The notes: generated by a model from the letters alone, not told the origin. A stretch of 64,000 nucleotides of DNA from Clostridiales bacterium (GCA_031261985.1 JAISIR010000001.1:72009-136008), one strand, 5' to 3'. Positions 12,600-41,583 are shown, counted from the stretch's first letter. A program made the numbers and translations.

Positions 12600-13439
12600 T
12601 TATATCTCAAGCTCGCCATTATACACAACATTGGCATCGCCTGTCATAAACACTGTCTCGTCGGTATAATTAATTTTAAGATTGCCGCCTATTAATTTAA
12701 CGGTTATGTCCTCACCTTTATTGCAATGTCCATTTAGTACAGAAGCGACAGCCGCGGCACACGCACCTGTTCCACATGCAAAAGTCTCGCCGCTTCCACG
12801 CTCCCACACGCGCATTTTAATGGTCTTGCTATCTACCACTTGAACAAACTCGGTATTAACTTGCTCGGGGAATATCTCGTTATTTTCGAACTTAGGTCCT
12901 AAAGTAGCTAAATCTAACGCATCCACATTATTGCAGAATACAACGCAATGGGGGTTACCCATAGACACACATGTGATGTTATAATCGGCATCATCTATTT
13001 GAACTTGTCTATCAACAACGCTATCGCCGCTTAAGTCGACAGGGATATCGGCAGGGTTTAAAATTGCGCTACCCATATCTACCTTAACGGTGGTAACCTT
13101 TCCATTAGTTGTAGAAAGTTCCAATGTTTTAATGCCGCTTAGAGTGTCCACTTTAATAACGTCTTTTTTGATAATTTTGTTATCGTATAAATACTTACCA
13201 ACGCAGCGGATACCATTGCCGCACATTTTACCCTCGCTACCGTCTTGGTTAAAGATTCGCATTTTAGCGTCGGCGGTGTCTGATGGCATAATCAAAATTA
13301 TCCCGTCACTGCCGACTCCTTTTCGACGGTCAGAGAAATTAACAGCTAGTGACTCGGGGCTTTCTATTTGTTGGTCGAAGCAATTTATGTATATATAATC
13401 GTTGCCGCAACCGTGCATTTTAGTGAATTTAATTTTCAT
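12600..13439 (-). other. dapF: DapF module with retained internal SD and ATG (possible independent translation)
   Basis: On the minus strand ..AATATGAGGAGCAACATGATGAAAATT.. places AGGAG 4 nt before ATG 13442 and 7 nt before ATG 13439. The product would start MKIKFTKMHGCGNDY, a normal DapF N-terminus. Confidence 0.55.
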
Positions 13440-16400
13440 CATGTTGCTCCTCATATTATTAATATCTACAAGCTCTGTAGTTTTTTCGGTATACTTAGTC
13501 AATAAACTATCGGCAATTGCGCCGGCGGTGTCGATGCTTGTAAGGCAAGGGATTCCTAAAAATACCGATTTACGCCTTAGCTTTACATCGTCTAATGTCG
13601 GGTCGCGCCCCTTTGTAGATGTCGAAATAATATAGTTAACTTTGCCTGTGTCTAGTAGATTGTCCGAATTAAGCTCGGGGTTCTCGTGAATCTTATTTAT
13701 CAAAGTAATTTTTAAGCCAGATGCCTCTAGTACCTTTTTGGTACCCTCGGTAGCGAATAATCTAAAGCCCATTCGTGCAAACTTCCTAGCTATATCAACG
13801 GTTTCTAATTTGTCGGAATCACGAACTGTTATAAACACGCCACCACTGCGACGCAATTTATACCCTGCTGCAACCAAGCCTTTGTACAATGCTTCTTGTA
13901 AGTTTTTACCGATGCCTAGCACTTCGCCTGTCGATTTCATCTCGGGACCTAAATGAGTATCTACATTAACTAATTTTTCGAAAGAGAAAACCGGGATTTT
14001 AACAGCGGTGTATGGTGGGACCTTGGCGATTCCTTCTTGCTGCAATTTCTCGCCAAGCGATGTTCGTGTAGCTAAATCGCACATTGGCACACCTGTTACC
14101 TTGCTTATATATGGTACCGTCCTAGATGCACGCGGGTTAACCTCGATAACATAAATATCGTTATGGCTTATGATATATTGGATATTAATTAGCCCTTGAA
14201 CTTTAAGCTCAAGCGAAATTCGCTTAGTCATATCATAAATCCGCTCGGCAAGCTCGTCGTTTATATGAGGCGCAGGGTAGACGGCAATGCTATCACCGCT
14301 ATGTACTCCTGTACGCTCAACATGCTCCATAATGCCAGGGATAAGAACCTTTTCGCCGTCGCAGATGCTGTCGACTTCTATTTCTAGTCCGCTTAAATAT
14401 TTATCTATTAGAACGGGGTTCTCTTGCTTTTGTCTAAAGATAATCTCCATATATTCTTTGATATCATCGTCCGAGTAAGCGATTATCATGTTTTGCCCTC
14501 CAAGCACGTAGCTAGGGCGCATTAGCACAGGGTAGCCAAGGTTATGAGCAGAATCTAACGCCTCTTGCAGAGTAAAGACGGTATAGCCTTTTGGGCGCGC
14601 TATGTTTAACTTTTCTAAGAAGGCGTCAAAACGCTCTCTATCCTCGCAAATATCTATACTATCGGCAGATGTGCCTAAAATTTTAACGCCGCGTTTTTGA
14701 AGCTCGTTAGTAAGTTTAATTGCGGTGCCACCACCAAACGATACTATAACGCCTATCGGCTTTTCAATCTCGATAACGCCCATTACGTCATCAATTGTTA
14801 GCGGCTCGAAATATAGGCGGTCGGCGGTGTCAAAATCGGTTGAGACGGTCTCGGGGTTATTATTAATAACGACGGTTTCGTAACCCATTTGTTTTAACGT
14901 CCATACACAATGCACGCATGCGTAATCGAACTCGATACCTTGGCCGATTCGGATGGGTCCGCTGCCTAGTACTACAACCGTCGGCTTTTTATTTTTATCG
15001 ATAAACTCTAGTGCTTCGTTCTCTTCCGCATTATGAATCGAGTAAAAATAAGGGGTTTGAGCGGCAAATTCCGCGCTACATGTATCTACCATTTTATACA
15101 TGAATGGTTTAGGGGTAGAATCGTAAGCGCCTGTAACAATGTTATTTATTTTGTGTAAGAACCACTTATCTATTAAGGTTAGCTCGTGGATTTTATCGAC
15201 CGATACACCACGTTTAAGCAGCTGATACACCTCGAAAAGACGCTCGTCGGTTGGGTTTTGGATATTATTTAATAATTCCTCATCGGTCTTTTGCGCTATC
15301 TTGGGTAGGTCAAGCGATTTTGCACTAATCTCTGCCCCGCGAACCGCCTTAACAATGGCTAGTTCAAAGCTATCGGCAATAGACATAACCTCGCCCGTCG
15401 CTTTCATTTGCGTGCCAAGCTCTTTTTTAGCGTACACAAATTTATCGAAAGGCCATTTAGGGAACTTAACGGCAACATAATCGAGTGTAGGCTCAAAGGC
15501 GGCATAAGTGTTTCCTGTAACGTCGTTTTTAATCTCGTCTAAGTTATAGCCGATAGCAATTTTAGTTGCAACCTTGGCAATAGGGTAGCCAGTTGCTTTA
15601 GATGCTAAGGCAGACGAACGCGAAACGCGTGGGTTAACCTCGATAACTGCGTAATCGAACGAATTAGGGTTAAGGGCAAATTGGCAATTGCAACCGCCTT
15701 CTACTTTAAGCGCCTGGATAATATCTAACGCCGCGCTGCGCAACATTTGATACTCTTTATCGGCTAACGTAACAGCGGGAGCTATAACTATGCTATCGCC
15801 TGTGTGAATGCCTACAGGGTCGAAGTTTTCCATTGAGCAAACAGCAATAGCGTTGCCGGCTTTATCGCGCATTATCTCGAACTCAATCTCTTTCCATCCT
15901 GCAATAGATTGCTCTACCAAAATTTGGTTAATGGGCGACATTGCTATACCATTACTTGCTATATGCTTAAGCTCTGCCTCGGTTTTGGCGATTCCGCCAC
16001 CGCTGCCGCCTAGGGTAAATGCAGGGCGAACTATAATAGGATAGCCAATTTCTTCAGCAAAATCTAACGCATCATCTACATGCTCGGTAACAATAGAGGG
16101 GATAGTAGGTTGACCTATAGATGCCATTGTATTTTTAAACATCTGCCTATCTTCGGATTTATCGATAGTCTCGGGGTTAGAGCCAAGTAGGCGGATATTG
16201 TGCTTGTTAAGGAATCCCTCACGCGCTAGTTGCATGCAAAGGTTAAGACCCGTTTGACCGCCTAGTCCAGATAAAATGCTATCGGGGCGTTCTTTAATTA
16301 TAATTCGTTTTATAGTGTTAAGGGTAAGCGGCTCGATATAAATTTTATCTGCCATTGCATTATCGGTCATAATTGTTGCCGGGTTAGAGTTAGCAAGTAC

Positions 16401-16532
16401 AATCTCGATACCTGCGTCTTTTAACACGCGGCAGGCTTGAGTTCCTGCATAGTCGAACTCGGCGGCTTGACCTATAACAATTGGCCCGCTACCTATAACA
16501 AGTGTTTTTTTAATAGATGTATCTAGTGGCAT
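12600..16532 (-). CDS. carB: Carbamoyl-phosphate synthase large subunit fused in frame to diaminopimelate epimerase (CarB-DapF)
   Basis: 1310-aa ORF. Residues 1-~1030 hold two ATP-grasp halves plus an MGS-like domain of CarB. The last ~280 aa are DapF (KMHGCGNDY, MCGNGIRC, FACGTGA). No stop codon separates them. Confidence 0.85.
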   Translation of the reverse strand: MPLDTSIKKTLVIGSGPIVIGQAAEFDYAGTQACRVLKDAGIEIVLANSNPATIMTDNAMADKIYIEPLTLNTIKRIIIKERPDSILSGLGGQTGLNLCMQLAREGFLNKHNIRLLGSNPETIDKSEDRQMFKNTMASIGQPTIPSIVTEHVDDALDFAEEIGYPIIVRPAFTLGGSGGGIAKTEAELKHIASNGIAMSPINQILVEQSIAGWKEIEFEIMRDKAGNAIAVCSMENFDPVGIHTGDSIVIAPAVTLADKEYQMLRSAALDIIQALKVEGGCNCQFALNPNSFDYAVIEVNPRVSRSSALASKATGYPIAKVATKIAIGYNLDEIKNDVTGNTYAAFEPTLDYVAVKFPKWPFDKFVYAKKELGTQMKATGEVMSIADSFELAIVKAVRGAEISAKSLDLPKIAQKTDEELLNNIQNPTDERLFEVYQLLKRGVSVDKIHELTLIDKWFLHKINNIVTGAYDSTPKPFMYKMVDTCSAEFAAQTPYFYSIHNAEENEALEFIDKNKKPTVVVLGSGPIRIGQGIEFDYACVHCVWTLKQMGYETVVINNNPETVSTDFDTADRLYFEPLTIDDVMGVIEIEKPIGVIVSFGGGTAIKLTNELQKRGVKILGTSADSIDICEDRERFDAFLEKLNIARPKGYTVFTLQEALDSAHNLGYPVLMRPSYVLGGQNMIIAYSDDDIKEYMEIIFRQKQENPVLIDKYLSGLEIEVDSICDGEKVLIPGIMEHVERTGVHSGDSIAVYPAPHINDELAERIYDMTKRISLELKVQGLINIQYIISHNDIYVIEVNPRASRTVPYISKVTGVPMCDLATRTSLGEKLQQEGIAKVPPYTAVKIPVFSFEKLVNVDTHLGPEMKSTGEVLGIGKNLQEALYKGLVAAGYKLRRSGGVFITVRDSDKLETVDIARKFARMGFRLFATEGTKKVLEASGLKITLINKIHENPELNSDNLLDTGKVNYIISTSTKGRDPTLDDVKLRRKSVFLGIPCLTSIDTAGAIADSLLTKYTEKTTELVDINNMRSNMMKIKFTKMHGCGNDYIYINCFDQQIESPESLAVNFSDRRKGVGSDGIILIMPSDTADAKMRIFNQDGSEGKMCGNGIRCVGKYLYDNKIIKKDVIKVDTLSGIKTLELSTTNGKVTTVKVDMGSAILNPADIPVDLSGDSVVDRQVQIDDADYNITCVSMGNPHCVVFCNNVDALDLATLGPKFENNEIFPEQVNTEFVQVVDSKTIKMRVWERGSGETFACGTGACAAAVASVLNGHCNKGEDITVKLIGGNLKINYTDETVFMTGDANVVYNGELEI

Positions 16533-20981: not shown

Positions 20982-21010
20982 ATTATATACTAATCGGCGA
21001 ATTTTGTCAA
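20982..21010 (-). promoter_or_regulatory. Sigma-A-type promoter of purB
   Basis: Minus strand reads TTGACA (21010-21005), a 17-nt spacer, then TATAAT (20987-20982). Confidence 0.7.
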
Positions 21011-21079: not shown

Positions 21080-21108
21080 TTGACAATTGCCTGAAAATAT
21101 AGTATAAT
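21080..21108 (+). promoter_or_regulatory. Sigma-A-type promoter of tRNA-Arg
   Basis: TTGACA (21080-85), 17 nt, then TATAAT (21103-08), about 30 nt upstream of the tRNA. Confidence 0.7.
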
Positions 21109-21395: not shown

Positions 21396-22496
21396 ATGAT
21401 TATTGGGATAACAGGTGGCAGCGGAAGTGGAAAGTCTACCTTGTCAAGAGAGCTTGCTAAACGTGGATTCACCGTGATTGATGCGGATAAAGAGTATCAT
21501 CATTTGCAAGAGAACGACCTTGAGTTGCGGCAAGAGCTCATAGATAATTTTGGGACGGCGGAGCGAGCGCAACTTAGGAATATTGTATTTGCTGATAAAG
21601 AAAAAGCCTCTCTTTTACGCGAGGTTACATACAAGCACATCACAAAAGCGATAGATAAAAAGCTAGCCTTAGGTGGCGACATTGTTTTAGATGCTTCGGG
21701 GTTGTTTGAATCGGGCTACGATGCTAAATGTGACAAAACTATAGCGGTGCTTGCCAACCGTGAGGTTAGGATAAACCGTCTTTTATTGCGCGATGGCTTA
21801 ACCAGACAGGCGATATTGAGCAGGTTGCAAGCTCAGCCTAGTGATGAGTTTTATACAAAAAGTGCCGATATAATTGTAAATAATAACGGAAATGGATTTA
21901 ATATTGATAGCATCCTTGGTAAACTGAATCAAAAAATTGCTATATATGGCGGAACCTTTTCGCCTCCTACTTTAGGGCATTTAGATGTCATAAAAAGAGC
22001 GGTGGCACTTTACGATAAACTGTATGTGGTAGTCCTTAAAAACCCTACTAAAGACCCTATTTTTACCGAAGAAGAGCGTTTGAATATGCTTAAAAAGATT
22101 ACCGAAGATTTGCCTAATGTAGAAGTTGAACGGTATGATGGTTTACTTGCGGAATATGCTAAAGAAAAGGGCGCAAATTTCTCGGTTCGTGGTCTTCGCG
22201 ACCAGTTCGATTTAAAGTCCGAACACGAAATGTATCAATTAAATGCTCAAATAGCAAAGGAAGAGTTTGAGTTTAGTTTAGATACTAATTTTTCACCTAC
22301 TACTTTAGAAAATTTTTACACCAGCTCTAGCATGGTGCGCGAACTATTTAAATCGGGTTCATATAAAGTTGCCTCTAAATATGTAGACGCGCGGATTTAT
22401 GACGATATTTTTAATAAGTATAGGGCAATTAATCTAGAGAAGAATAATGCTCAAAGCAGCGCGGCAATCTCTAGGATAGCGCCTCAAACCCCTTAA
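21396..22496 (+). CDS. Bifunctional dephospho-CoA kinase / phosphopantetheine adenylyltransferase fusion (CoaE-CoaD)
   Basis: The N-terminal ~180 aa carry the CoaE P-loop IIGITGGSGSGKST. The C-terminal ~180 aa carry CoaD motifs IAIYGGTFSPPTLGHLDVIKRA, RGLRD and TSSSMVRE. No start codon or SD at the junction. Confidence 0.85.
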   Translation: MIIGITGGSGSGKSTLSRELAKRGFTVIDADKEYHHLQENDLELRQELIDNFGTAERAQLRNIVFADKEKASLLREVTYKHITKAIDKKLALGGDIVLDASGLFESGYDAKCDKTIAVLANREVRINRLLLRDGLTRQAILSRLQAQPSDEFYTKSADIIVNNNGNGFNIDSILGKLNQKIAIYGGTFSPPTLGHLDVIKRAVALYDKLYVVVLKNPTKDPIFTEEERLNMLKKITEDLPNVEVERYDGLLAEYAKEKGANFSVRGLRDQFDLKSEHEMYQLNAQIAKEEFEFSLDTNFSPTTLENFYTSSSMVRELFKSGSYKVASKYVDARIYDDIFNKYRAINLEKNNAQSSAAISRIAPQTP

Positions 22497-22506
22497 TTAA
22501 TTTGGC

Positions 22507-23430
22507 TTAGTGGTTGTGGTTATGCCCAAAATGTGCGCCGCCGCCTGTGTTTTCTGCATTTACATGGCATTCGGGTCCGTCGCACTCTTCGTCTTCAAAC
22601 TCGATTTCTATGCTACTATGGCTAATGCCATGCTCGGCAAGCTCGGTTTTTATGAACGACTTTATTGCTACAATATCCTCGCGCGCGATATCCTTACTAA
22701 TAATCGCGTGAAGTGTTATATATTTGTTGACACCGTCTAGGCTCCACAAGTGTATATGATGAATATCGCGAATGTTATTATTACTTAAAATATGTTTTTT
22801 TAAATCGTCCATGTTTATATCGGTGGGCGATTTTTCTAAAAATACCTCGAATATTTTTTTGATATTTTTTAGCACATTAAACGATATAAAAATTGCTATT
22901 AGTATCGAAAGAATAGGGTCAAGGATTGGCAAATTAAATATCTTCATTACAATGCCAACCACTAAAACTGCTGCCCAGCCCAAGACATCTTCTAGCATGT
23001 GAAGGCTTATAGCGCGCTCGTTTAGGCTGTGGTTGCGCGAGGTTTTTAGCACTGCCACGCCGTTTACCATAAAGCCTAGCACCGCCAAAATTAGCACGCC
23101 GTTGTAGTCGATATCTGCCGGAGTAAACAAGCGGGGGATAGCCCCTGCCACCGCGATAATTGAGGTTGCAAGCAAAAAGATGGAACATATAAGCGCGCCT
23201 AAAACTGAGAACCTGCCATAGCCATAGGTGTAGTTTTTATTAGGTTGACGCTCGGATTTCCGTTCTAGACCCCAAGAGACTAATATCGAAATACTATCGC
23301 CAAAGTCGTGAAGTGAATCGGTAATTATGGCGATACTATTGGTGTAAAAGCCGCCGACAAGCTCGATAATTGCGAATATAAAGTTTAGCAAAAATGCCAA
23401 ACGAATATTTTTAGTAGATTTTTTTTGCAT
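22507..23430 (-). CDS. Cation diffusion facilitator (CzcD/ZitB-type) divalent-metal efflux transporter
   Basis: Six TM spans, HDFGDS and HMLEDVLG metal-site motifs, and a His-rich C-terminus GGGAHFGHNHNH. Confidence 0.9.
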   Translation of the reverse strand: MQKKSTKNIRLAFLLNFIFAIIELVGGFYTNSIAIITDSLHDFGDSISILVSWGLERKSERQPNKNYTYGYGRFSVLGALICSIFLLATSIIAVAGAIPRLFTPADIDYNGVLILAVLGFMVNGVAVLKTSRNHSLNERAISLHMLEDVLGWAAVLVVGIVMKIFNLPILDPILSILIAIFISFNVLKNIKKIFEVFLEKSPTDINMDDLKKHILSNNNIRDIHHIHLWSLDGVNKYITLHAIISKDIAREDIVAIKSFIKTELAEHGISHSSIEIEFEDEECDGPECHVNAENTGGGAHFGHNHNH

Positions 23431-23578
23431 TACGTTACCACCTTTTGGATTAATTATAATACATAAATATTAAAAGGTCAAGTATTTTAAGACAAAAAAA
23501 TAAGCGGATTGAATCCGTTTTTAAGATATTATTTATATTACAAAATAGTTAAAATATTGTTGCTATTGTTAGTTCGTG

Positions 23579-23607
23579 TTGACTTTTGTCAGTTTTTTTG
23601 ATATAAT
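23579..23607 (+). promoter_or_regulatory. Promoter of small-peptide mRNA, copy 1
   Basis: TTGACT, 17 nt, then TATAAT. Confidence 0.6.
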
Positions 23608-23684
23608 ACCTTTGGTAGTTCAACAAGGGGATATTCAGCTTGTGATGGTTGGCTTCCTTGCTCAACAGCAAGGAGGTGGTGCCG

Positions 23685-23756
23685 ATGAAGAAGTTTATAA
23701 TTGCTTTTGTAATTATACTTATTCTGATGGCGTTCTTTGCTACTCCGGTAGTTTAG
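23685..23756 (+). CDS. 23-aa hydrophobic peptide MKKFIIAFVIILILMAFFATPVV (candidate type I toxin, copy 1)
   Basis: GGAGGTG SD lies 8 nt before the ATG and there is a consensus promoter upstream. A paralogous ORF is conserved at 37713..37784. Missed by the 60-aa-minimum ORF track. Confidence 0.45.
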   Translation: MKKFIIAFVIILILMAFFATPVV

Positions 23757-23759
23757 AGT

Positions 23760-23862
23760 AAAAAAACAACCGTCTTACCCTTGTAAAGTTGACGGTTGTG
23801 ATAATAACACTATAGAAATTTGCAAGGAAGCTAGCCGTTATAATCGGTTTTCCCCTTTTGTT
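23760..23862 (-). ncRNA. Predicted ~100-nt antisense RNA (candidate antitoxin, copy 1)
   Basis: Bounded by minus-strand TTGACA-17-TATAAT (23869..23897) and a hairpin ACAACCGTC/GACGGTTGT followed by T7 on the minus strand only. Ends are inferred, not measured. Confidence 0.4.
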
Positions 23863-23868
23863 ACTAAC

Positions 23869-23897
23869 ATTATACTATATGTTTTATTATTTGTCAA
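23869..23897 (-). promoter_or_regulatory. Convergent antisense promoter, copy 1
   Basis: Minus strand reads TTGACA (23897-92), 17 nt, then TATAAT (23874-69). Confidence 0.6.
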
Positions 23898-23920
23898 TAG
23901 TTTGTTGTATAAATATTTTC

Positions 23921-24145
23921 TTAAACTCTTGGCATATTCATACCTTTTGATAGGTTTTTATTTTGGACCACGCCCTTTGCAGAAGTAGAATTTTTTGCAT
24001 AATTAATCCTCTCTGCCATTGTAGGGTCTAACATTTTATTTTTAGCTGCAAGTGAATCGGTAATTTTGACAGCTAACCCTTTACCTGCGTTTAACGCTCT
24101 TTGGCTTGCATCTATTTTTTGTGCATGTCTTTTTAATACGTTCAT
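23921..24145 (-). CDS. Hypothetical small basic protein (74 aa)
   Basis: ORF lies 30 nt downstream of the 113-aa ORF on the same strand, probably in one transcription unit. No family recognised. Confidence 0.5.
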   Translation of the reverse strand: MNVLKRHAQKIDASQRALNAGKGLAVKITDSLAAKNKMLDPTMAERINYAKNSTSAKGVVQNKNLSKGMNMPRV

Positions 24146-24647: not shown

Positions 24648-24676
24648 TTGACAAAAGCAAGCTGCTATGTTATAAT
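24648..24676 (+). promoter_or_regulatory. Promoter of the acyl-CoA ligase gene
   Basis: TTGACA, 17 nt, then TATAAT; perfect consensus. Confidence 0.7.
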
Positions 24677-35816: not shown

Positions 35817-37475
35817 ATGAATATAAAACATTGCAATTGGCACAGTCATAAAAAATGTTGTAAATGTTGTGTGTGTTGCGCAGGCGGAGGTTCGGGTAGT
35901 GTGGGTCCGACAGGACCGACAGGACCGATGGGACCGACAGGGGCTACAGGCGCGATGGGGCCTAAAGGTGACACAGGTGCGACGGGCGAAACGGGTATAC
36001 AAGGTGTAGAAGGCGAGCAGGGGGTGCAAGGAATCGCTGGTAGCACGGGGCCGACAGGCGAGCGTGGCGAAAAGGGCGACACAGGGGCGAGTGGTGCGAC
36101 AGGGGCTACAGGCGAGCAAGGACTTCAAGGGATTCAGGGCATTCAGGGGATTCAAGGGGTAAAAGGGGACACAGGTGCGTCGGGCGAACGTGGGGAAACA
36201 GGAGCGACGGGAGCAACTGGGCTTCAGGGGATTCAAGGCGAGCAAGGTGTGGCAGGCGCGACGGGTGCTACAGGCGAGCGTGGAGAGAAAGGTGACACAG
36301 GCGACACAGGTCCGCAGGGATTACAAGGAGCCCAGGGTGAGACAGGTCCGCAAGGTATTCAAGGCGTACCGGGCGCGGCGGGCGAAGTTGGCTCGTTAAA
36401 AGGTGCATATGACACTTTAGAAGATTTACAGGCAGCACACCCGACAGGGAATGCTGGCGATGCGTATTATATTCAACCAGACCTATACATATGGGACACG
36501 ACGACGAACTCGTGGCTTAACATTGGCGAAATTGCAGGGCCGCAGGGTGTGACAGGTCCGCAGGGGGTACAAGGCCCGCAAGGTGATACAGGGGCGACGG
36601 GACCTAAAGGCGACACAGGTGCAACTGGGGCGACTGGCAGCACTGGAGCAGCGGGATCGACAGGGGCAACAGGTGCGACGGGGTTGCAGGGCGTTCAGGG
36701 GATTCAAGGTGACACAGGAGCGACAGGCGAGCGTGGCGAGAAGGGGGATACCGGTGACACAGGTGCGCAAGGGGTTCAGGGGGAGCAAGGGATTCAAGGT
36801 ATACCAGGTGCGACGGGGGCGACTGGGGGCATTGGAGCAACAGGTGCGACGGGCGAGAAAGGTGACACAGGCGACACAGGTCCGCAGGGCATTCAGGGTG
36901 TGCAAGGAGTGCAGGGGGTTCAAGGCGTAGTAGGTCCGACGGGACCGACAGGAGCGGCTGGCGAGGCAGGGCCAATGGGACCGACGGGGGATACAGGACC
37001 GATGGGGTCGACAGGTCCGACGGGGACTTGTGATTGTTCGGCTTTAGAAGAGAGAATAACGAATCTGGAAACAGAAATAAGGACAATAGTATCGGAAATT
37101 ACGCCGTCGACAGTGCGGACGGCATTAACTGAGGAGCCGACACTTAGCGGGATAGGGACTAGCGTTATAAACACAGGCGACACCTTTAATTTTTGGGGGA
37201 CGAATGAACTGACTCAGGCGGCTTCGCTTAATAATGGGCAGACATACTATATTGCGACGTCTGACCAATTCCCTGAACTAAAGAACTACCAAGGCTCGCC
37301 GACTATTACCACCATGTGGATAGAGAAGCCCGACGGAACGACTCAGACGGTGCCTGTGTATTTTGATTCGAATGGGATATATTTTACGCCGTCGTCTTCG
37401 ATTAATAATTTGCCAATAGGCACATCGTTTAAGTTTACGCAGGCGTTGATTTTGGATAGCGGGGATATAAGTTAG
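35817..37475 (+). CDS. Collagen-like triple-helix repeat protein (BclA/exosporium-type) with Cys-rich N-terminus and globular C-terminal domain
   Basis: Two long G-X-T/G-X-Q triplet arrays are separated by a ~50-aa non-collagen insert. N-terminus is [13 protein letters not shown]-terminal heptad segment [16 protein letters not shown] precedes a ~130-aa beta-rich domain. Confidence 0.85.
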
Positions 37476-37605
37476 GAAAAATAATTGAGAATTGAGAATG
37501 CAGAATGCAGAAATAATGTAATAAATTTTCACTAACGCTCAAATTTACAAACATGCAAAAAATATTACAAAATAGTTAAATTATTGTTACTTTTGTTGGT
37601 TTATG

Positions 37606-37634
37606 TTGATTTTTATCGAAATATTAGATATAAT
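37606..37634 (+). promoter_or_regulatory. Promoter of small-peptide mRNA, copy 2
   Basis: TTGATT, 17 nt, then TATAAT. Confidence 0.6.
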
Positions 37635-37712
37635 ACTCTCGGTAGTATAATGAAGGGGATATTCAGCTTGTGACGGATTGCTTCCTTGCTCAACAGCAGG
37701 GAGGTGGTGCCG

Positions 37713-37784
37713 ATGAAGAAATTTATGATTGCTTTTGTAATTATACTTATTCTCGCGGCAATCTTTGCTACTCCTGTAATTTAG
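37713..37784 (+). CDS. 23-aa hydrophobic peptide MKKFMIAFVIILILAAIFATPVI (candidate type I toxin, copy 2)
   Basis: Paralog of 23685..23756 with the same SD context (GGGAGGTG), same length and only conservative substitutions. Confidence 0.45.
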   Translation: MKKFMIAFVIILILAAIFATPVI

Positions 37785-37789
37785 AGTAA

Positions 37790-37886
37790 CAAAAACAACC
37801 GTCGCATCTTTGGAAAGGGACGACGGTTGATATATTCACAATAATCCAAGGAAGCTAACCGAAACATTCGGTCTTCCCCTTTTGTT
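37790..37886 (-). ncRNA. Predicted ~100-nt antisense RNA (candidate antitoxin, copy 2)
   Basis: Minus-strand TTGACA-17-TATAAT (37893..37921), and a hairpin CAACCGTCG/CGACGGTTG followed by a T-run on the minus strand. Ends are inferred. Confidence 0.4.
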
Positions 37887-37892
37887 ACTACC

Positions 37893-37921
37893 ATTATACT
37901 ACATAATTAATCATTTGTCAA
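37893..37921 (-). promoter_or_regulatory. Convergent antisense promoter, copy 2
   Basis: Minus strand reads TTGACA (37921-16), 17 nt, then TATAAT (37898-93). Confidence 0.6.
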
Positions 37922-37927
37922 TATTTT

Positions 37928-39022
37928 TTATCTAGGCGCGACCATATAGAGCATTTTAGCAGTCGCAAGCCTCATTATATGTTCTAGCACTTCAGGATTA
38001 TTCGTGTTTTCGATTGCAGCTACAATTTCTGGCGCAATCTTTACCTCTGGTTTATTGTTTGGCTTATCCTCGCGTGCCTTTTCTAAAACAGCGGCGACAC
38101 TTTTTCGCGTAACGCGTTTTTTGCTTTCAAGAATCGGCTTAATTTCCTCTAGTTTTTTAGGACTAATCCAATACTTATTGCTATTATCTTTAGCGTAAGC
38201 GTCTTTTAATGCCTCAACACTTTTTATTCCCGCTTTATACAAATGGAATTCGGTAATATCACCAAGTTTTAAAGTAGTAAGAGGGGTCTTCTTTTGCTGA
38301 ATCGCCTCGACGTAAGCCTCGATATCTTTTAAGCCGTCAGAATTAAATATCTCGCTTAATATTTCAGGCTTATTTTGATATGTTTTTACTAAATCTTTTT
38401 CTTTAAATATTCCGTTATAATTCAAGTAGTAGATATTACCAGAGCCTAGCACATTGACGTCTAAAAAACCTTTAGGTGTCATGTCATTTTTGTACATACA
38501 TTCCACTATTTTTGTAATCAGACTTTTTTCTACTTTTGCTTTACGCAACTTTGATATAATACTAGATGTTTTGGCTGCATCTTTAAAATCGTTCATATTC
38601 TTAATACCTATAGAATGCAACGCAGCAACAACATCATCAGCGCGAACATCATTTTTGAAGTAAGTTCTTAGACGAAGGTCGCGAGGTTGATATTGTGATA
38701 ACTCTGGAAGTTCTTCTAACACGTTAAAAGCACCGTGAATTCTGCGAGCAATACGATTTGCATCATAATCTTTAAAAATCTCTTTATGCTCGCTGGCTTT
38801 TAAGAATTCTTCTATTTCTTCTTCACACTTTGGTTTACCGTCGTTAAGACCATAACGCTCTTGCAATGGCAGGCGATATTCAATATCTAGCTCAGATATT
38901 TTGTCTTTTATAAACTGGATCACATCAAAATTGTAATCGGTTAAAGACACACCACCTTCTTTAACTAAATGTTTGAATAAATTTTCGTAATTTTTCTCGT
39001 ACATAAGTTTTAATCTCCCCAT
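37928..39022 (-). CDS. Hypothetical protein (364 aa) with a sigma-region-4-like RYGLNDGKP segment
   Basis: Long ORF. The ATG at 39004 (MYEKNY), preceded by GGGGAGA, is an equally good start. Served by promoter TTGACT-17-TATAAT at 39046..39074. Confidence 0.6.
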   Translation of the reverse strand: MGRLKLMYEKNYENLFKHLVKEGGVSLTDYNFDVIQFIKDKISELDIEYRLPLQERYGLNDGKPKCEEEIEEFLKASEHKEIFKDYDANRIARRIHGAFNVLEELPELSQYQPRDLRLRTYFKNDVRADDVVAALHSIGIKNMNDFKDAAKTSSIISKLRKAKVEKSLITKIVECMYKNDMTPKGFLDVNVLGSGNIYYLNYNGIFKEKDLVKTYQNKPEILSEIFNSDGLKDIEAYVEAIQQKKTPLTTLKLGDITEFHLYKAGIKSVEALKDAYAKDNSNKYWISPKKLEEIKPILESKKRVTRKSVAAVLEKAREDKPNNKPEVKIAPEIVAAIENTNNPEVLEHIMRLATAKMLYMVAPR

Positions 39023-39180: not shown

Positions 39181-41583
39181 ATGCCCCAAGGCGCGACGCA
39201 AACTAACGAGAATCATGATAACTCTGAAATTAAGGCGGTTATAATGTGTGGAGGTGGCGGGACTAGGCTGCGCCCCCTTACTTGTGATATCCCTAAACCC
39301 ATGTTACCTATTATGGGCAAACCTGCGCTGTTGCATATAATAAACCTGCTTAAAAAGCATGGAATTACCAATATAATTATTACTTTGCAATATCTGCCCC
39401 AAGTAGTTATAGATTATTTTGGTGACGGTCGTGATTTTGGCGTGAACATCGAATATTTTATCGAGCGTGTGCCGCTTGGGACGGCTGGCTCGGTTAAGAA
39501 TGCCCAAAGCTCGCTTAGTGATACATTTTTAGTTATAAGTGGCGATAGTGTGACAGATATCGATTTAACGCGCGCGTTAGATTATCATTCTACTAAAAAT
39601 GCCGATGCCACCCTTGTGCTTACCACCGTTGATAAGCCTTATGAGTATGGCGTGGTCGAGACCGAGAGCGATGGGCATATTAATAAGTTCTTAGAGAAGC
39701 CCGATTGGACGGAAGTGTGGACTAACACCGTTAATACAGGAACATATATACTTAAAAAAAGTGTGCTTAATAAGTTCTCGGCTAACGAGATGTTCGATTT
39801 CGCATCCGACCTCTTCCCTATGATGCTTAGTGATGGTGATGAGATTTATGGGTACACAGCCGCTGGATATTGGTGCGATATTGGCGATGCTAAAGCGTAC
39901 GCTATGTGTCATAACGATATATTAGACGGTAAAATTGTGTTGGATATTGATGCCGATTACACTTCGGTTGATTCATCTAAAGCTAATATTCACAAAGATG
40001 CTATAGTAGGCAGCCCGTGTTATATTGGCGAGGGCGTAAAAGTTGGTGCAGGTGCGTATGTATCTGCCTATAGTGTGTTAGGCGATAATTGCAAGGTAGG
40101 CGATAACGCTCGGGTTAACAGCTCTATTTTTCATGATAGGGTAACAGTTGGCGCGTCGACGAGTATAAGTAATTCTATTGTGTGTCAAAATAGCAAGATA
40201 GGAGATTTTACCACGCTGCACGATGCTAGCATTATAGGCGCTAACTGTGTTGTAGATGATATGGTAACGGTTCACCCTTCAATTAAAATTTGGTCGAACA
40301 AGCATATCGAACAAGGGGCGAATGTGCACTCTAACCTTGTATGGGGCGACCATTACACGCGCAAGCTATTTGGCGATGATGCAATTGTAGGCGAGGTTAA
40401 TGTAGATATAACTCCCGAATTTGCCACGCGGCTTGGGACTACCTTTAGCGCGTTATTCAAAGGTGGGCATATAGGTATAGGGTATGGCAGCGGCGGGGCT
40501 TTGTTAATGCTTAAAAATGCCTTTATAGCTGGCTTACTATCTAGTGGTGCCGAAGTGTACGATTTTGATGTGCAAACGCTGCCGACGGCGCGGAATGCTA
40601 TCGCCTTTTACAAGCTAGATGGCGGGGTGCATTTAGCATATAATCCCGATGATGAAAAACCTAAGCTAACCATTAGTTTTTTAGATTCAAACGGTGGTAA
40701 TATAGTTAGGGCTAAAGAGCGAAAGCTAGAGCAAATGTTTAATCGTGAGGATTACACTCGTGCCGAAGCAGAAGAGATTGCCAATGTAAATAAACTGACA
40801 GATTATAATCTGTTTTATCTGCACAGGTTGCTTAATTACGATGACACAGCCAAGCAAATAGACCGCATGCGTATGCCAATTAGTGTAGAGTGTAATAATA
40901 AGGTAGCGTGCGAGCTGGCTAACACCGTCCTTAAAAAGATAGGCGCGGGCGTGTATACATCTGCCGATGAAGTGAATAATATGGTAACAGCGCACATTGA
41001 TGATTTAGGTGAGAATGTTGTTTTATATGACGAAAAAGGGCATAAACTAACGTCGCAGCAATATTTGTATTTGCAATGTAAAATGATACTAGAGTGGGAT
41101 AAAGCTCAAAAAATAGTCGTGCCTATGACGGCGAGCAATTGGATAGACGATTTAGCAGCTAGGCATGGGGCCGAAGTGTTGCGGAGTAAAATTACTAAGT
41201 CAGACATTCAGCAAACGCTATTGCAAAACAAGCTGGATTATCAGTTTAAGCTAATGTTTGATGCTAACTTTATGTTGCTTCAATTGTGCCGATATATGAA
41301 TATAAATCGCATGAAGCTGTGGGATATTGTATCCACCCTGCCGACTATGTATTTTGCAAGCAAGGAGATTGAAGTGGACGACGAAGTGAAATCGCAAGTT
41401 CTAGGTAATTTAGCGCGCAGAGTAGACGGGATATTTGATTCTAGCGAGCTAAACGGTGGGCTTAAACTAGCGCGAGATAACGGTTGGGTAATGGTTAGCC
41501 CAGTTAAGCATACTAATAAGTTTAAAGTTGTAGCCGAGGGCGCAACGCAAGAGATAGCCGATGAGTTAACAGGTATGATTTAG
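39181..41583 (+). CDS. Sugar-1-phosphate nucleotidyltransferase + left-handed beta-helix + phosphohexomutase-like domain fusion
   Basis: N-terminal GGGGTRLRPLT..PKPMLP signature. Hexapeptide-repeat region near aa 270-370. The C-terminal ~400 aa resemble PGM/PMM domains. GAGGAGG SD. Confidence 0.8.
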   Translation: MPQGATQTNENHDNSEIKAVIMCGGGGTRLRPLTCDIPKPMLPIMGKPALLHIINLLKKHGITNIIITLQYLPQVVIDYFGDGRDFGVNIEYFIERVPLGTAGSVKNAQSSLSDTFLVISGDSVTDIDLTRALDYHSTKNADATLVLTTVDKPYEYGVVETESDGHINKFLEKPDWTEVWTNTVNTGTYILKKSVLNKFSANEMFDFASDLFPMMLSDGDEIYGYTAAGYWCDIGDAKAYAMCHNDILDGKIVLDIDADYTSVDSSKANIHKDAIVGSPCYIGEGVKVGAGAYVSAYSVLGDNCKVGDNARVNSSIFHDRVTVGASTSISNSIVCQNSKIGDFTTLHDASIIGANCVVDDMVTVHPSIKIWSNKHIEQGANVHSNLVWGDHYTRKLFGDDAIVGEVNVDITPEFATRLGTTFSALFKGGHIGIGYGSGGALLMLKNAFIAGLLSSGAEVYDFDVQTLPTARNAIAFYKLDGGVHLAYNPDDEKPKLTISFLDSNGGNIVRAKERKLEQMFNREDYTRAEAEEIANVNKLTDYNLFYLHRLLNYDDTAKQIDRMRMPISVECNNKVACELANTVLKKIGAGVYTSADEVNNMVTAHIDDLGENVVLYDEKGHKLTSQQYLYLQCKMILEWDKAQKIVVPMTASNWIDDLAARHGAEVLRSKITKSDIQQTLLQNKLDYQFKLMFDANFMLLQLCRYMNINRMKLWDIVSTLPTMYFASKEIEVDDEVKSQVLGNLARRVDGIFDSSELNGGLKLARDNGWVMVSPVKHTNKFKVVAEGATQEIADELTGMI

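Follow-up and report, generated by a model that had tools for sequence, protein, structure and literature searches.

A duplicated 360-bp module with two convergent promoters and a 23-codon frame in an uncultured Clostridiales genome: a candidate type I toxin-antitoxin system

What does a short intergenic unit encode in which two convergent promoters face each other and neither serves a larger gene? We examined this question for a locus of approximately 360 bp in a stretch of 64,000 nucleotides (64 kb, hereafter the window) from an uncultured Clostridiales bacterium represented by a metagenome-assembled genome (MAG; GCA_031261985.1, JAISIR010000001.1:72009-136008). Positions are counted from the first letter of the window and the plus strand is the strand presented. 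A preliminary description had proposed the locus as a candidate for a toxin-antitoxin (TA) system of type I, possibly of a new family. This proposal gains support from the duplication of the unit, from the signs of selection on its 23-amino-acid (aa) frame and from the conservation of a Shine-Dalgarno (SD) hairpin and an antisense terminator. On the features described below we consider it probable that the locus is a chromosomal type I TA module of a new family, of the Fst/SprA1 architectural type and present in two diverged copies.

Duplication of a unit with two convergent promoters

The unit was found to occur twice in the source genome. A BLAST search of the window with a 366-bp query revealed a second copy, which occupies 37562-37923 on that same strand with an identity of 81%, and an nhmmer search of the window gave no copies beyond these two. 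In the alignment of the copies the homology extends from near 23540, about 40 nt 5' of the sense -35 hexamer, to the antisense -35 hexamer (23897). The flanks of the two copies are only 38-49% identical, which equals background, as compared to 81% inside the module. The neighbouring genes differ as well: copy 1 lies between a divergent gene for a CDF transporter and a 74-aa open reading frame (ORF), and copy 2 between a gene for a collagen-repeat protein and a 364-aa ORF without a family match. Because the homology does not extend beyond the module edges and the two copies have different flanking genes, the two-promoter unit is, judged from this comparison, an autonomous and duplicated module. 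The coordinates of its features are collected in Table 1.

Table 1. Positions of the module copies and of the observed and predicted features within them
Feature	Position	Strand	Basis
Module copy 1, whole duplicated unit	23540..23897		homology limits against copy 2
Module copy 2, 14 kb from copy 1 and in the same orientation	37567..37921		81% identity over 369 aligned columns; nhmmer E = 3e-126
AT-rich block 5' of the sense -35, possibly an UP element or a remnant of a promoter copy	23540..23578	+	85% identity between copies
Sense promoter of the peptide mRNA, TTGACT-17-TATAAT, TG-extended	23579..23607	+	11/12 match
Copy 2 sense promoter, TTGATT-17-TATAAT	37606..37634	+	10/12 match
mRNA leader, ~71 nt, transcription start inferred; holds AAGGGGA (23625-31), anti-SD and SD	23614..23684	+	leader core 93% conserved
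AAGGGGA sites, copy 1	23625-23631; 23851-23857	+; -	
AAGGGGA sites, copy 2	37653; 37875		
23-codon ORF MKKFIIAFVIILILMAFFATPVV, candidate toxin; peptide predicted to cross the membrane in a single pass	23685..23756	+	ATG 23685 to TAG (23754-56)
Copy 2 23-codon ORF MKKFMIAFVIILILAAIFATPVI	37713..37784	+	homologue of copy 1 ORF
Predicted antisense RNA, ~104 nt, candidate antitoxin	23759..23862	-	delimited by promoter and terminator
Copy 2 predicted antisense RNA, ~100 nt; terminator hairpin 37795-37830	37787..37886	-	promoter and terminator, consensus fold
Antisense intrinsic terminator, ACAACCGUC/GACGGUUGU and inner helix; U-run at plus coordinates 23760-23765	23766..23799	-	fold energy
Predicted target-recognition stretch of the antisense RNA, CGGCUAGCUUCCUUGC, complementary to mRNA SD-to-start GCAAGGAGGUGGUGCCG	23822..23839	-	duplex -25.2 kcal/mol
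Antisense promoter, TTGACA-17-TATAAT	23869..23897	-	12/12 match
Copy 2 antisense promoter, TTGACA-17-TATAAT	37893..37921	-	12/12 match

Conservation between the copies tracks predicted function, and the loops and flanks have diverged. Identity amounts to 93% in the leader core and 87.5% in the 23-codon ORF. It is 100% and 89% in the arms of the terminator hairpin and 50% in its loop. The 5' end of the antisense RNA and its stretch AAGGAAGCTA are both 100% identical, and the middle of this RNA is 46% identical, with indels.

Both promoters of copy 1 were found as the preliminary description had read them. A match at all 12 hexamer positions occurs five times in the window, and two of the five are the antisense promoters of the module copies. 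The other three are located at 21080 (+), before tRNA-Arg, at 21010 (-), before purB, and at 24648 (+), before a gene for a fatty-acid CoA ligase. Since these three precede such genes, the full consensus marks real strong promoters in the source organism. The promoters at 21080 and 21010 are divergent and stand back-to-back, 70 nt apart.

It is very improbable that the locus reflects chance, that is, AT-rich intergenic DNA with fortuitous hexamers and a recent, functionless segmental duplication. Promoter-like hexamers are indeed common in this DNA of 39% GC (16 found as compared to 9.4 expected in a local scan of 2.5 kb). However, an identity of 81% means that the duplication is not recent, and the uneven divergence has spared every predicted functional element, with both antisense promoters still at 12/12. 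In addition, a relative of the encoded peptide was found in another metagenome (P0005, see below).

A stretch of about 40 nt before the sense -35 hexamer (23536-23574 in copy 1 and 37563-37601 in copy 2) resembles the antisense promoter together with its transcription start (TATTGACAAAT...TATAATGTTAGT). The alignment score of this likeness was 23, as compared to 14 +/- 2.4 for shuffled sequences, one of which reached 24. The block could represent either an UP element or the vestige of a third promoter copy. We also considered a miniature inverted-repeat transposable element (MITE) with terminal inverted repeats, which was not established: the similarity of the module ends is weak (z ~3.7, with one shuffle higher) and is explained by the promoter resemblance.

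Predicted RNAs and reading frame of the module

The leader of the predicted peptide mRNA would fold onto its own ribosome-binding site (RBS), in line with the SD occlusion proposed before. In copy 1 the anti-SD segment GCTTCCTTGC (23652-61) pairs with the SD GCAAGGAGG (23668-76) in an 11-bp hairpin with a predicted energy of -16.8 kcal/mol. In copy 2 the anti-SD at 37680-37689 pairs with the SD GCAGGGAGG (37696-37704), again over 11 bp and with -16.0 kcal/mol, and an A>G change in the SD stem retains the pairing as U-G. The hairpin is present in the minimum free energy (MFE) and consensus folds of both copies, and sequestration of the RBS is predicted from it. An SD-like heptamer, AAGGGGA, is fully conserved and lies about 6-12 nt from the inferred 5' end of both predicted RNAs. 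The consensus fold of the antisense RNA pairs it with the UUCCUU part of the anti-SD motif. Within the mRNA it might rival the true SD for the anti-SD, or serve as a 5' stabiliser.

On the opposite strand the predicted antisense small RNA (sRNA) consists of a 5' domain and a 3'-terminal terminator hairpin, and would end 3-4 nt from the stop codon of the ORF, without overlapping it. On either strand the hairpin has a stable fold (-13.8 kcal/mol on the plus and -14.3 kcal/mol on the minus strand). An uninterrupted run of seven U comes after it solely on the minus strand, and the tail on the plus strand is GAUAAUAAC; this one-sided T-run had been noted correctly from the first. A terminator scanner passed over the site, the nominal loop being longer than 8 nt; an inner helix closes that loop. 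The loops of the two copies (23775-23790 and 37804-37821) align better as reverse complement than directly (score 3 as compared to 0), which weakly suggests, the loops being short, an inversion of the loop between conserved stem arms. A minus-strand ORF within the sRNA was rejected, with an ATG found in copy 2 and none in copy 1.

The preliminary description had the antisense transcript as an RNA of about 100 nt that is fully complementary to the 3' untranslated region of the peptide mRNA. The predicted size agrees with this. The full complementarity presumes an mRNA that continues past the hairpin, where a plus-strand terminator is absent. If the mRNA ended at the hairpin, the two RNAs would, as in Fst/RNAII, have an overlap of about 40 nt; a read-through mRNA would carry the full complement of the sRNA. 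In the MFE folds of both such 'long' mRNAs a panhandle forms between the 3' extension and the leader of the same molecule.

The complementarity of this extension to its own leader is due to an inverted duplication within each module, which we deduced from the similarity, in the same sense, of the mRNA leader and the sRNA 5' domain. Both follow the pattern (G)GUAGU..AACAA..GGGGA..(~20 nt)..GCUUCCUUG. Their alignment score was 23, as compared to 11.5 +/- 2.1 for shuffled sequences, and none of 500 shuffles reached 23. The sRNA 5' domain holds UAGCUUCCUUG, identical to the leader anti-SD. The position of the motif complementary to the leader anti-SD was corrected to 23822-23831, and the copy 2 motif is read from plus coordinates 37847-37857. 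Positions 23823-23833 are identical in both copies. The sequence GCTTCCTTG occurs four times in the window, solely within the modules: once in the leader and once at the antisense site of either copy.

Since the sRNA 5' domain shares the leader anti-SD motif, it could pair in trans with the SD and start region of the peptide. Its CGGYUAGCUUCCUUG is complementary to the SD-to-start segment GCARGGAGGUGGUGCCG(AUG) of the mRNA, which lies outside the antisense overlap. The predicted duplexes of the sRNA with the translation initiation region (TIR) of the peptide, cognate as well as across copies, range from -22.6 to -25.2 kcal/mol. For 56 other TIRs the mean was -14.4 +/- 4, placing the module pairs at z of about -2.1 to -2.7 (copy 1 cognate pair, z = -2.7). 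The pairing energy alone is not decisive, one unrelated TIR scoring equally well, because any CUUCC motif binds a strong SD. Three one-sided changes occur in the helices of the two copies, and all of them preserve pairing.

The reading frame encodes MKK followed by 20 hydrophobic residues, a span just sufficient to cross a membrane, with a mean hydropathy of 2.3 in copy 1 and GGAGG 8 nt 5' of the ATG. Start, length and end agree exactly with the initial reading of a KK-plus-hydrophobic peptide. Within the module PGAP annotated no gene, and the annotation track called a 61-aa frame (23576..23761) that, as had been pointed out, is in another frame and misses the peptide. In the 23-aa frame the two copies differ by four synonymous and five non-synonymous changes, all five replacing one hydrophobic residue with another, and the synonymous and non-synonymous rates are dS 0.31 and dN 0.10 (dN/dS ~0.3). 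In the 61-aa frame dN is 0.15 and dS 0.08 (dN/dS ~1.9), with radical replacements; both ratios derive from two sequences and their statistics are weak. The third reading frame is stop-rich. These values, weak as statistics but concordant, point to selection on the 23-aa frame and not on the 61-aa frame. The 61-aa ORF was rejected as a gene, with dN/dS above 1, only 39 aa left in copy 2 and no family match.

A HMMER search with the two extended peptide ORFs against 1.84 billion representative proteins gave exactly one significant match, P0005 (E = 6.7e-8), a 37-aa metagenome ORF from JGI/IMG, VTDCFLAISKGVLPMKKSLIAFVIIIVLMAIFAEPVI. Its 23-aa core MKKSLIAFVIIIVLMAIFAEPVI ends at the same position as the window peptides. 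Across the three peptides 15 positions are invariant, and the C-terminal A-x-P-V-(V/I) is conserved, with T, T and E at its variable position. The residues CFLA and SKG upstream of the P0005 core match what TGCTTCCTTGC and AGCAAGG would encode, which is compatible with retention of the anti-SD and the SD in this relative.

The two RNAs might also be the actual product of the locus. It would then be a mainly non-coding repeat, whose convergent small RNAs act in trans on other mRNAs through SD-binding CUUCC seeds, with an incidental or vestigial ORF. The 5' start shared by both RNAs agrees with this, as do the pairing of the anti-SD seed with at least one unrelated TIR at about equal strength and the conservation of the leader, which exceeds that of the ORF. 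We nevertheless consider it improbable. The length, start, stop and SD spacing of the ORF are exactly kept in both copies and its core recurs in the metagenomic relative; only in the 23-aa frame are the substitutions synonymous or hydrophobic-conservative; and the two module ORFs are the only SD-preceded ORFs of 15-45 aa with a mean hydropathy above 2 on either strand of the window.

Other searches for relatives gave no further member. No match came from protein searches with the concatenated peptides or with a chimeric six-frame translation made from both modules, and a profile of the three sequences retrieved P0005 only. Exact look-ups of the small ORFs of the module and of P0005 returned no records. 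The pattern of the anti-SD/SD hairpin followed by ATGAA gave 0 viral hits, 5 among GTDB species representatives and 15 in JGI metagenomes, all by chance. One of the pattern matches, L004, proved to be a ferredoxin-like gene, and no pattern match carries the start of the peptide. A back-translated peptide pattern had 0 matches on viral contigs, and blastn of the module against phage and plasmid collections gave no match. No Rfam family matched the window at gathering score, and the region 23400-24000 gave only noise at E <= 10 (E >= 1.3). Among known proteins only sub-threshold similarity was detected, to the N-terminal signal-peptide parts of Phr and AimP precursors. The preliminary description had recognised no similarity of the peptide to the toxins of the Firmicutes pairs that it named, and Pfam, NCBIfam and PADLOC gave neither a toxin nor a defence match.

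Comparison with known systems and proposed mechanism

The features that characterise type I TA loci were compared with those of the module. Such loci have a hydrophobic ORF of 20-60 aa with an SD, and the module has one of 23 aa; sequestration of the RBS in a structured mRNA is predicted. They also have an antisense sRNA of 60-200 nt with its own promoter and terminator and with complementarity to the toxin mRNA, and sequence features of both module copies delimit a putative gene for such an RNA. In the Gram-positive families the antisense RNA lies on the 3' side of the toxin gene, and in Fst/RNAII and SprA1/SprA1AS alone does it leave the ORF uncovered and have its site of interaction outside the overlap (PMC8594479, the T1TAdb paper). 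The module is predicted to share this arrangement: a 3'-side antisense RNA, a spared ORF and RBS pairing outside the overlap. In TxpA/RatA, BsrG/SR4 and YonT/SR6 the antisense RNA reaches into the toxin ORF at its 3' part (PMC8594479), whereas the antisense U-run of the module ends before the stop codon and its peptide has no similarity to these toxins. Of the three architectures to which the locus had been likened at first, fst/RNAII thus remains, and txpA/RatA and bsrG/SR4 do not.

The par locus of the Enterococcus faecalis plasmid pAD1 (Fst/RNA I-RNA II) is like the predicted module in that convergent RNAs meet at a shared hairpin and in having a 3'-side antisense RNA that spares the ORF. 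In that locus, pairing of the DRa and DRb repeats prevents the ribosome from binding (PMC4147584). Pairing of the antitoxin to the initiation region through short repeats and intramolecular masking of the SD are known from Fst/RNAII (PMC4147584, PMC7472228, PMC8594479) and are likewise predicted for the module. However, Fst has about 30-33 aa as compared to 23. The module peptide also lacks the PXXXG motif, the Trp and the charged C-terminal tail, no Fst/Ldr model matched it at E <= 10, and no RNAII-type Rfam match was obtained. Fst/RNAII has a shared bidirectional terminator; the module hairpin is stable on both strands but, with a U-run on the minus strand only, is not evidently bidirectional. 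In SprA1/SprA1AS (PepA1) of Staphylococcus aureus, a 3'-side RNA encoded in cis pairs with the RBS 'in trans' by a non-overlapping 5' domain (PMC8309996, PMC8594479), as predicted here. The promoter or abundance of that antitoxin is far above that of the toxin (PMC7472228), and the predicted promoter strengths of the module are alike in this. PepA1 is a 30-aa Fst-family peptide without sequence similarity to the module peptide, and in the module the sRNA motif is instead an exact copy of the anti-SD of its own mRNA.

With regard to the peptide, IbsC/SibC and ShoB/OhsC of E. coli are closer, with toxins of 19 and 26 aa that are almost purely hydrophobic, have no positive C-terminus and belong to multicopy systems (PMC8309996). 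They differ in being Gram-negative and without sequence similarity; Sib covers the ibs ORF in its entirety, and OhsC is transcribed divergently with no overlap (PMC8594479). Within the Clostridia, the CD2517.1/RCd8-type systems of Clostridioides difficile also have convergent overlapping transcripts, structured mRNAs in which the RBS is sequestered, and short antitoxin RNAs of high abundance (PMC5961336). Their toxins, however, are of 50-53 aa with a lysine-rich C-terminus and without similarity to the peptide, their overlap is 131-283 nt and they are associated with CRISPR arrays and prophages.

The peptide could instead be non-toxic, either a signalling pro-peptide that is secreted or processed at the membrane (SHP, PrgQ/iCF10 or XIP type) or a benign membrane protein, tuned by the antisense RNA as Anti-Q tunes prgQ. 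The precursors of the SHP/Rgg and prgQ/Anti-Q systems are of about 23 aa with MKK and a hydrophobic run, so that size and shape fit, and in prgQ/prgX the pheromone gene lies within convergent, mutually antisense transcription (PMC3679016, PMC3181467). The conserved C-terminus with its single variable position and the sub-threshold likeness to Phr and AimP N-termini are also in favour of a pheromone. However, such loci always have an adjacent receptor gene, rgg in the case of SHP (PMC3679016) or prgX in the case of prgQ, and no Rgg, PrgX or other RRNPP-type receptor gene was found beside either copy or among the annotated ORFs. The module moves self-contained and has been duplicated without a partner gene. 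SHPs have a conserved Asp or Glu (PMC3679016), whereas the two window peptides are without acidic residues. The 11-bp lock on the SD and the maximal-strength antisense promoter point to tight repression and not to signal production, and the antisense transcript is predicted to end at its own terminator and not to form the 5' end of a regulator mRNA. We therefore regard a signalling or benign role as unlikely.

For the type I TA module we propose the following mechanism, in which both transcripts, their RNA-RNA interaction in vivo and the toxicity of the peptide are inferred from the sequence elements, their duplication and regional conservation, the coding signature and the predicted pairings. 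The moderately strong sense promoter would give a short mRNA, the leader of which would lock the SD in the hairpin with the anti-SD GCUUCCUUGC. The peptide, when in excess, would damage or depolarise the membrane as IbsC and ShoB do. From the perfect-consensus convergent promoter an antisense RNA of about 105 nt would be made, ending at the strong intrinsic terminator by the ORF stop and complementary to the 3' region of the mRNA across the shared hairpin. Its 5' domain, an inverted duplicate of the mRNA leader, would bind the SD-to-start region in trans and thereby prevent translation, and the antisense/mRNA pairing may also create a substrate for RNase III.

Several findings weigh against a TA module. 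The peptide is indistinguishable from a bare signal peptide or a pheromone precursor, and its only similarity, to the Phr and AimP N-termini, is below threshold. Neither a known toxin family (Pfam, NCBIfam, PADLOC) nor an antitoxin RNA family of Rfam was matched. Beyond the hairpin the plus strand lacks an intrinsic terminator; over 600 nt separate it from the nearest following terminator-like sites, which are not conserved. The trans pairing energy is not unique, with z of only about -2.5 and one unrelated TIR scoring equally, and consensus folding of the two copies gave no two-sided compensatory change in any helix. The family comprises three members only, with DNA for two of them. Finally, the candidate peptide lacks the charged C-terminus that is typical of most type I toxins (PMC5961336). 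As IbsC (19 aa) and ShoB (26 aa) are toxic without a positively charged C-terminus (PMC8309996), the shape of the peptide is nevertheless within the known range.

More tentatively, the module may represent an undescribed type I TA family of uncultured Clostridiales that has the smallest Gram-positive type I toxin to date (23 aa, without a charged tail) and an antitoxin RNA derived from an inverted duplicate of the leader; this combination is possible, yet we would not presume it. If it were true, the anti-SD lock in cis and the antitoxin seed in trans would be one sequence in two copies, a clear case of an antitoxin evolved from the self-repressing element of its toxin, and the duplication could in addition give the read-through mRNA a switch by its 5'-3' panhandle. 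The inverted duplication of leader and antitoxin suggests a simple evolutionary route to RNA antitoxins. Confirmation would add a type I TA family from a poorly sampled lineage of uncultured Clostridiales, in which homology searches and gene callers detect nothing. The 'cis-encoded but RBS-targeting' design of Fst and SprA1 would then also extend to an unrelated, minimal peptide. The current understanding of type I TA systems is unchanged by the module, which would be a compact and self-contained repression unit.

Genomic surroundings of the two copies

A leader or riboswitch of a downstream gene was rejected as an explanation of the module. In both copies no larger co-oriented gene follows, as the preliminary description had observed for the first, and the next plus-strand genes lie past oppositely oriented genes; after copy 1, that gene is served by a separate promoter. 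That the module should always be the leader of a downstream gene, which had been named as evidence against a TA locus, is not the case in either of the two copies.

The minus-strand genes for the 74-aa ORF (23921-24145) and the 364-aa ORF (37928-39022) end 6-23 nt before the antisense -35 hexamers, and both are without a terminator of their own. Their mRNAs would therefore traverse the sRNA gene and stop at the sRNA terminator, and the sRNA sequence could thus also be produced as a 3' untranslated region. The proteins encoded next to the copies are the CDF transporter, proteins of 74, 113 and 364 aa without a family match, and the collagen-like protein. The neighbouring proteins are deposited as MDR0930198-203 on a 160-kb contig, and each one checked formed a singleton cluster. 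Look-ups of the neighbouring genes gave only short Logan contigs from one sample, SRR14710920. Two of these contigs, L001 and L022, have ends that overlap over 23696-23723, within the module's 26-nt block of identity between the copies; the contigs break there, as is expected of an assembler at a repeat.

Directly to the left of copy 2, positions 35817-37475 (+) encode a 552-aa protein with collagen triple-helix (GXY) repeats and a non-collagen C-terminal domain. Elsewhere in the window several multidomain proteins were observed. A 1310-aa ORF at 12600-16532 (-) is an unusual fusion of a complete carbamoyl-phosphate synthase large subunit with a full-length diaminopimelate epimerase (DapF) domain (residues 1034-1308). 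At 21396-22496 (+) a 366-aa protein has an N-terminal CoaE (dephospho-CoA kinase) and a C-terminal cytidylyltransferase-like domain of PPAT type, and the last two steps of CoA synthesis would therefore share one polypeptide. An 800-aa fusion at 39181-41583 (+) joins a sugar-1-phosphate nucleotidylyltransferase to a phosphoglucosamine-mutase-like domain.

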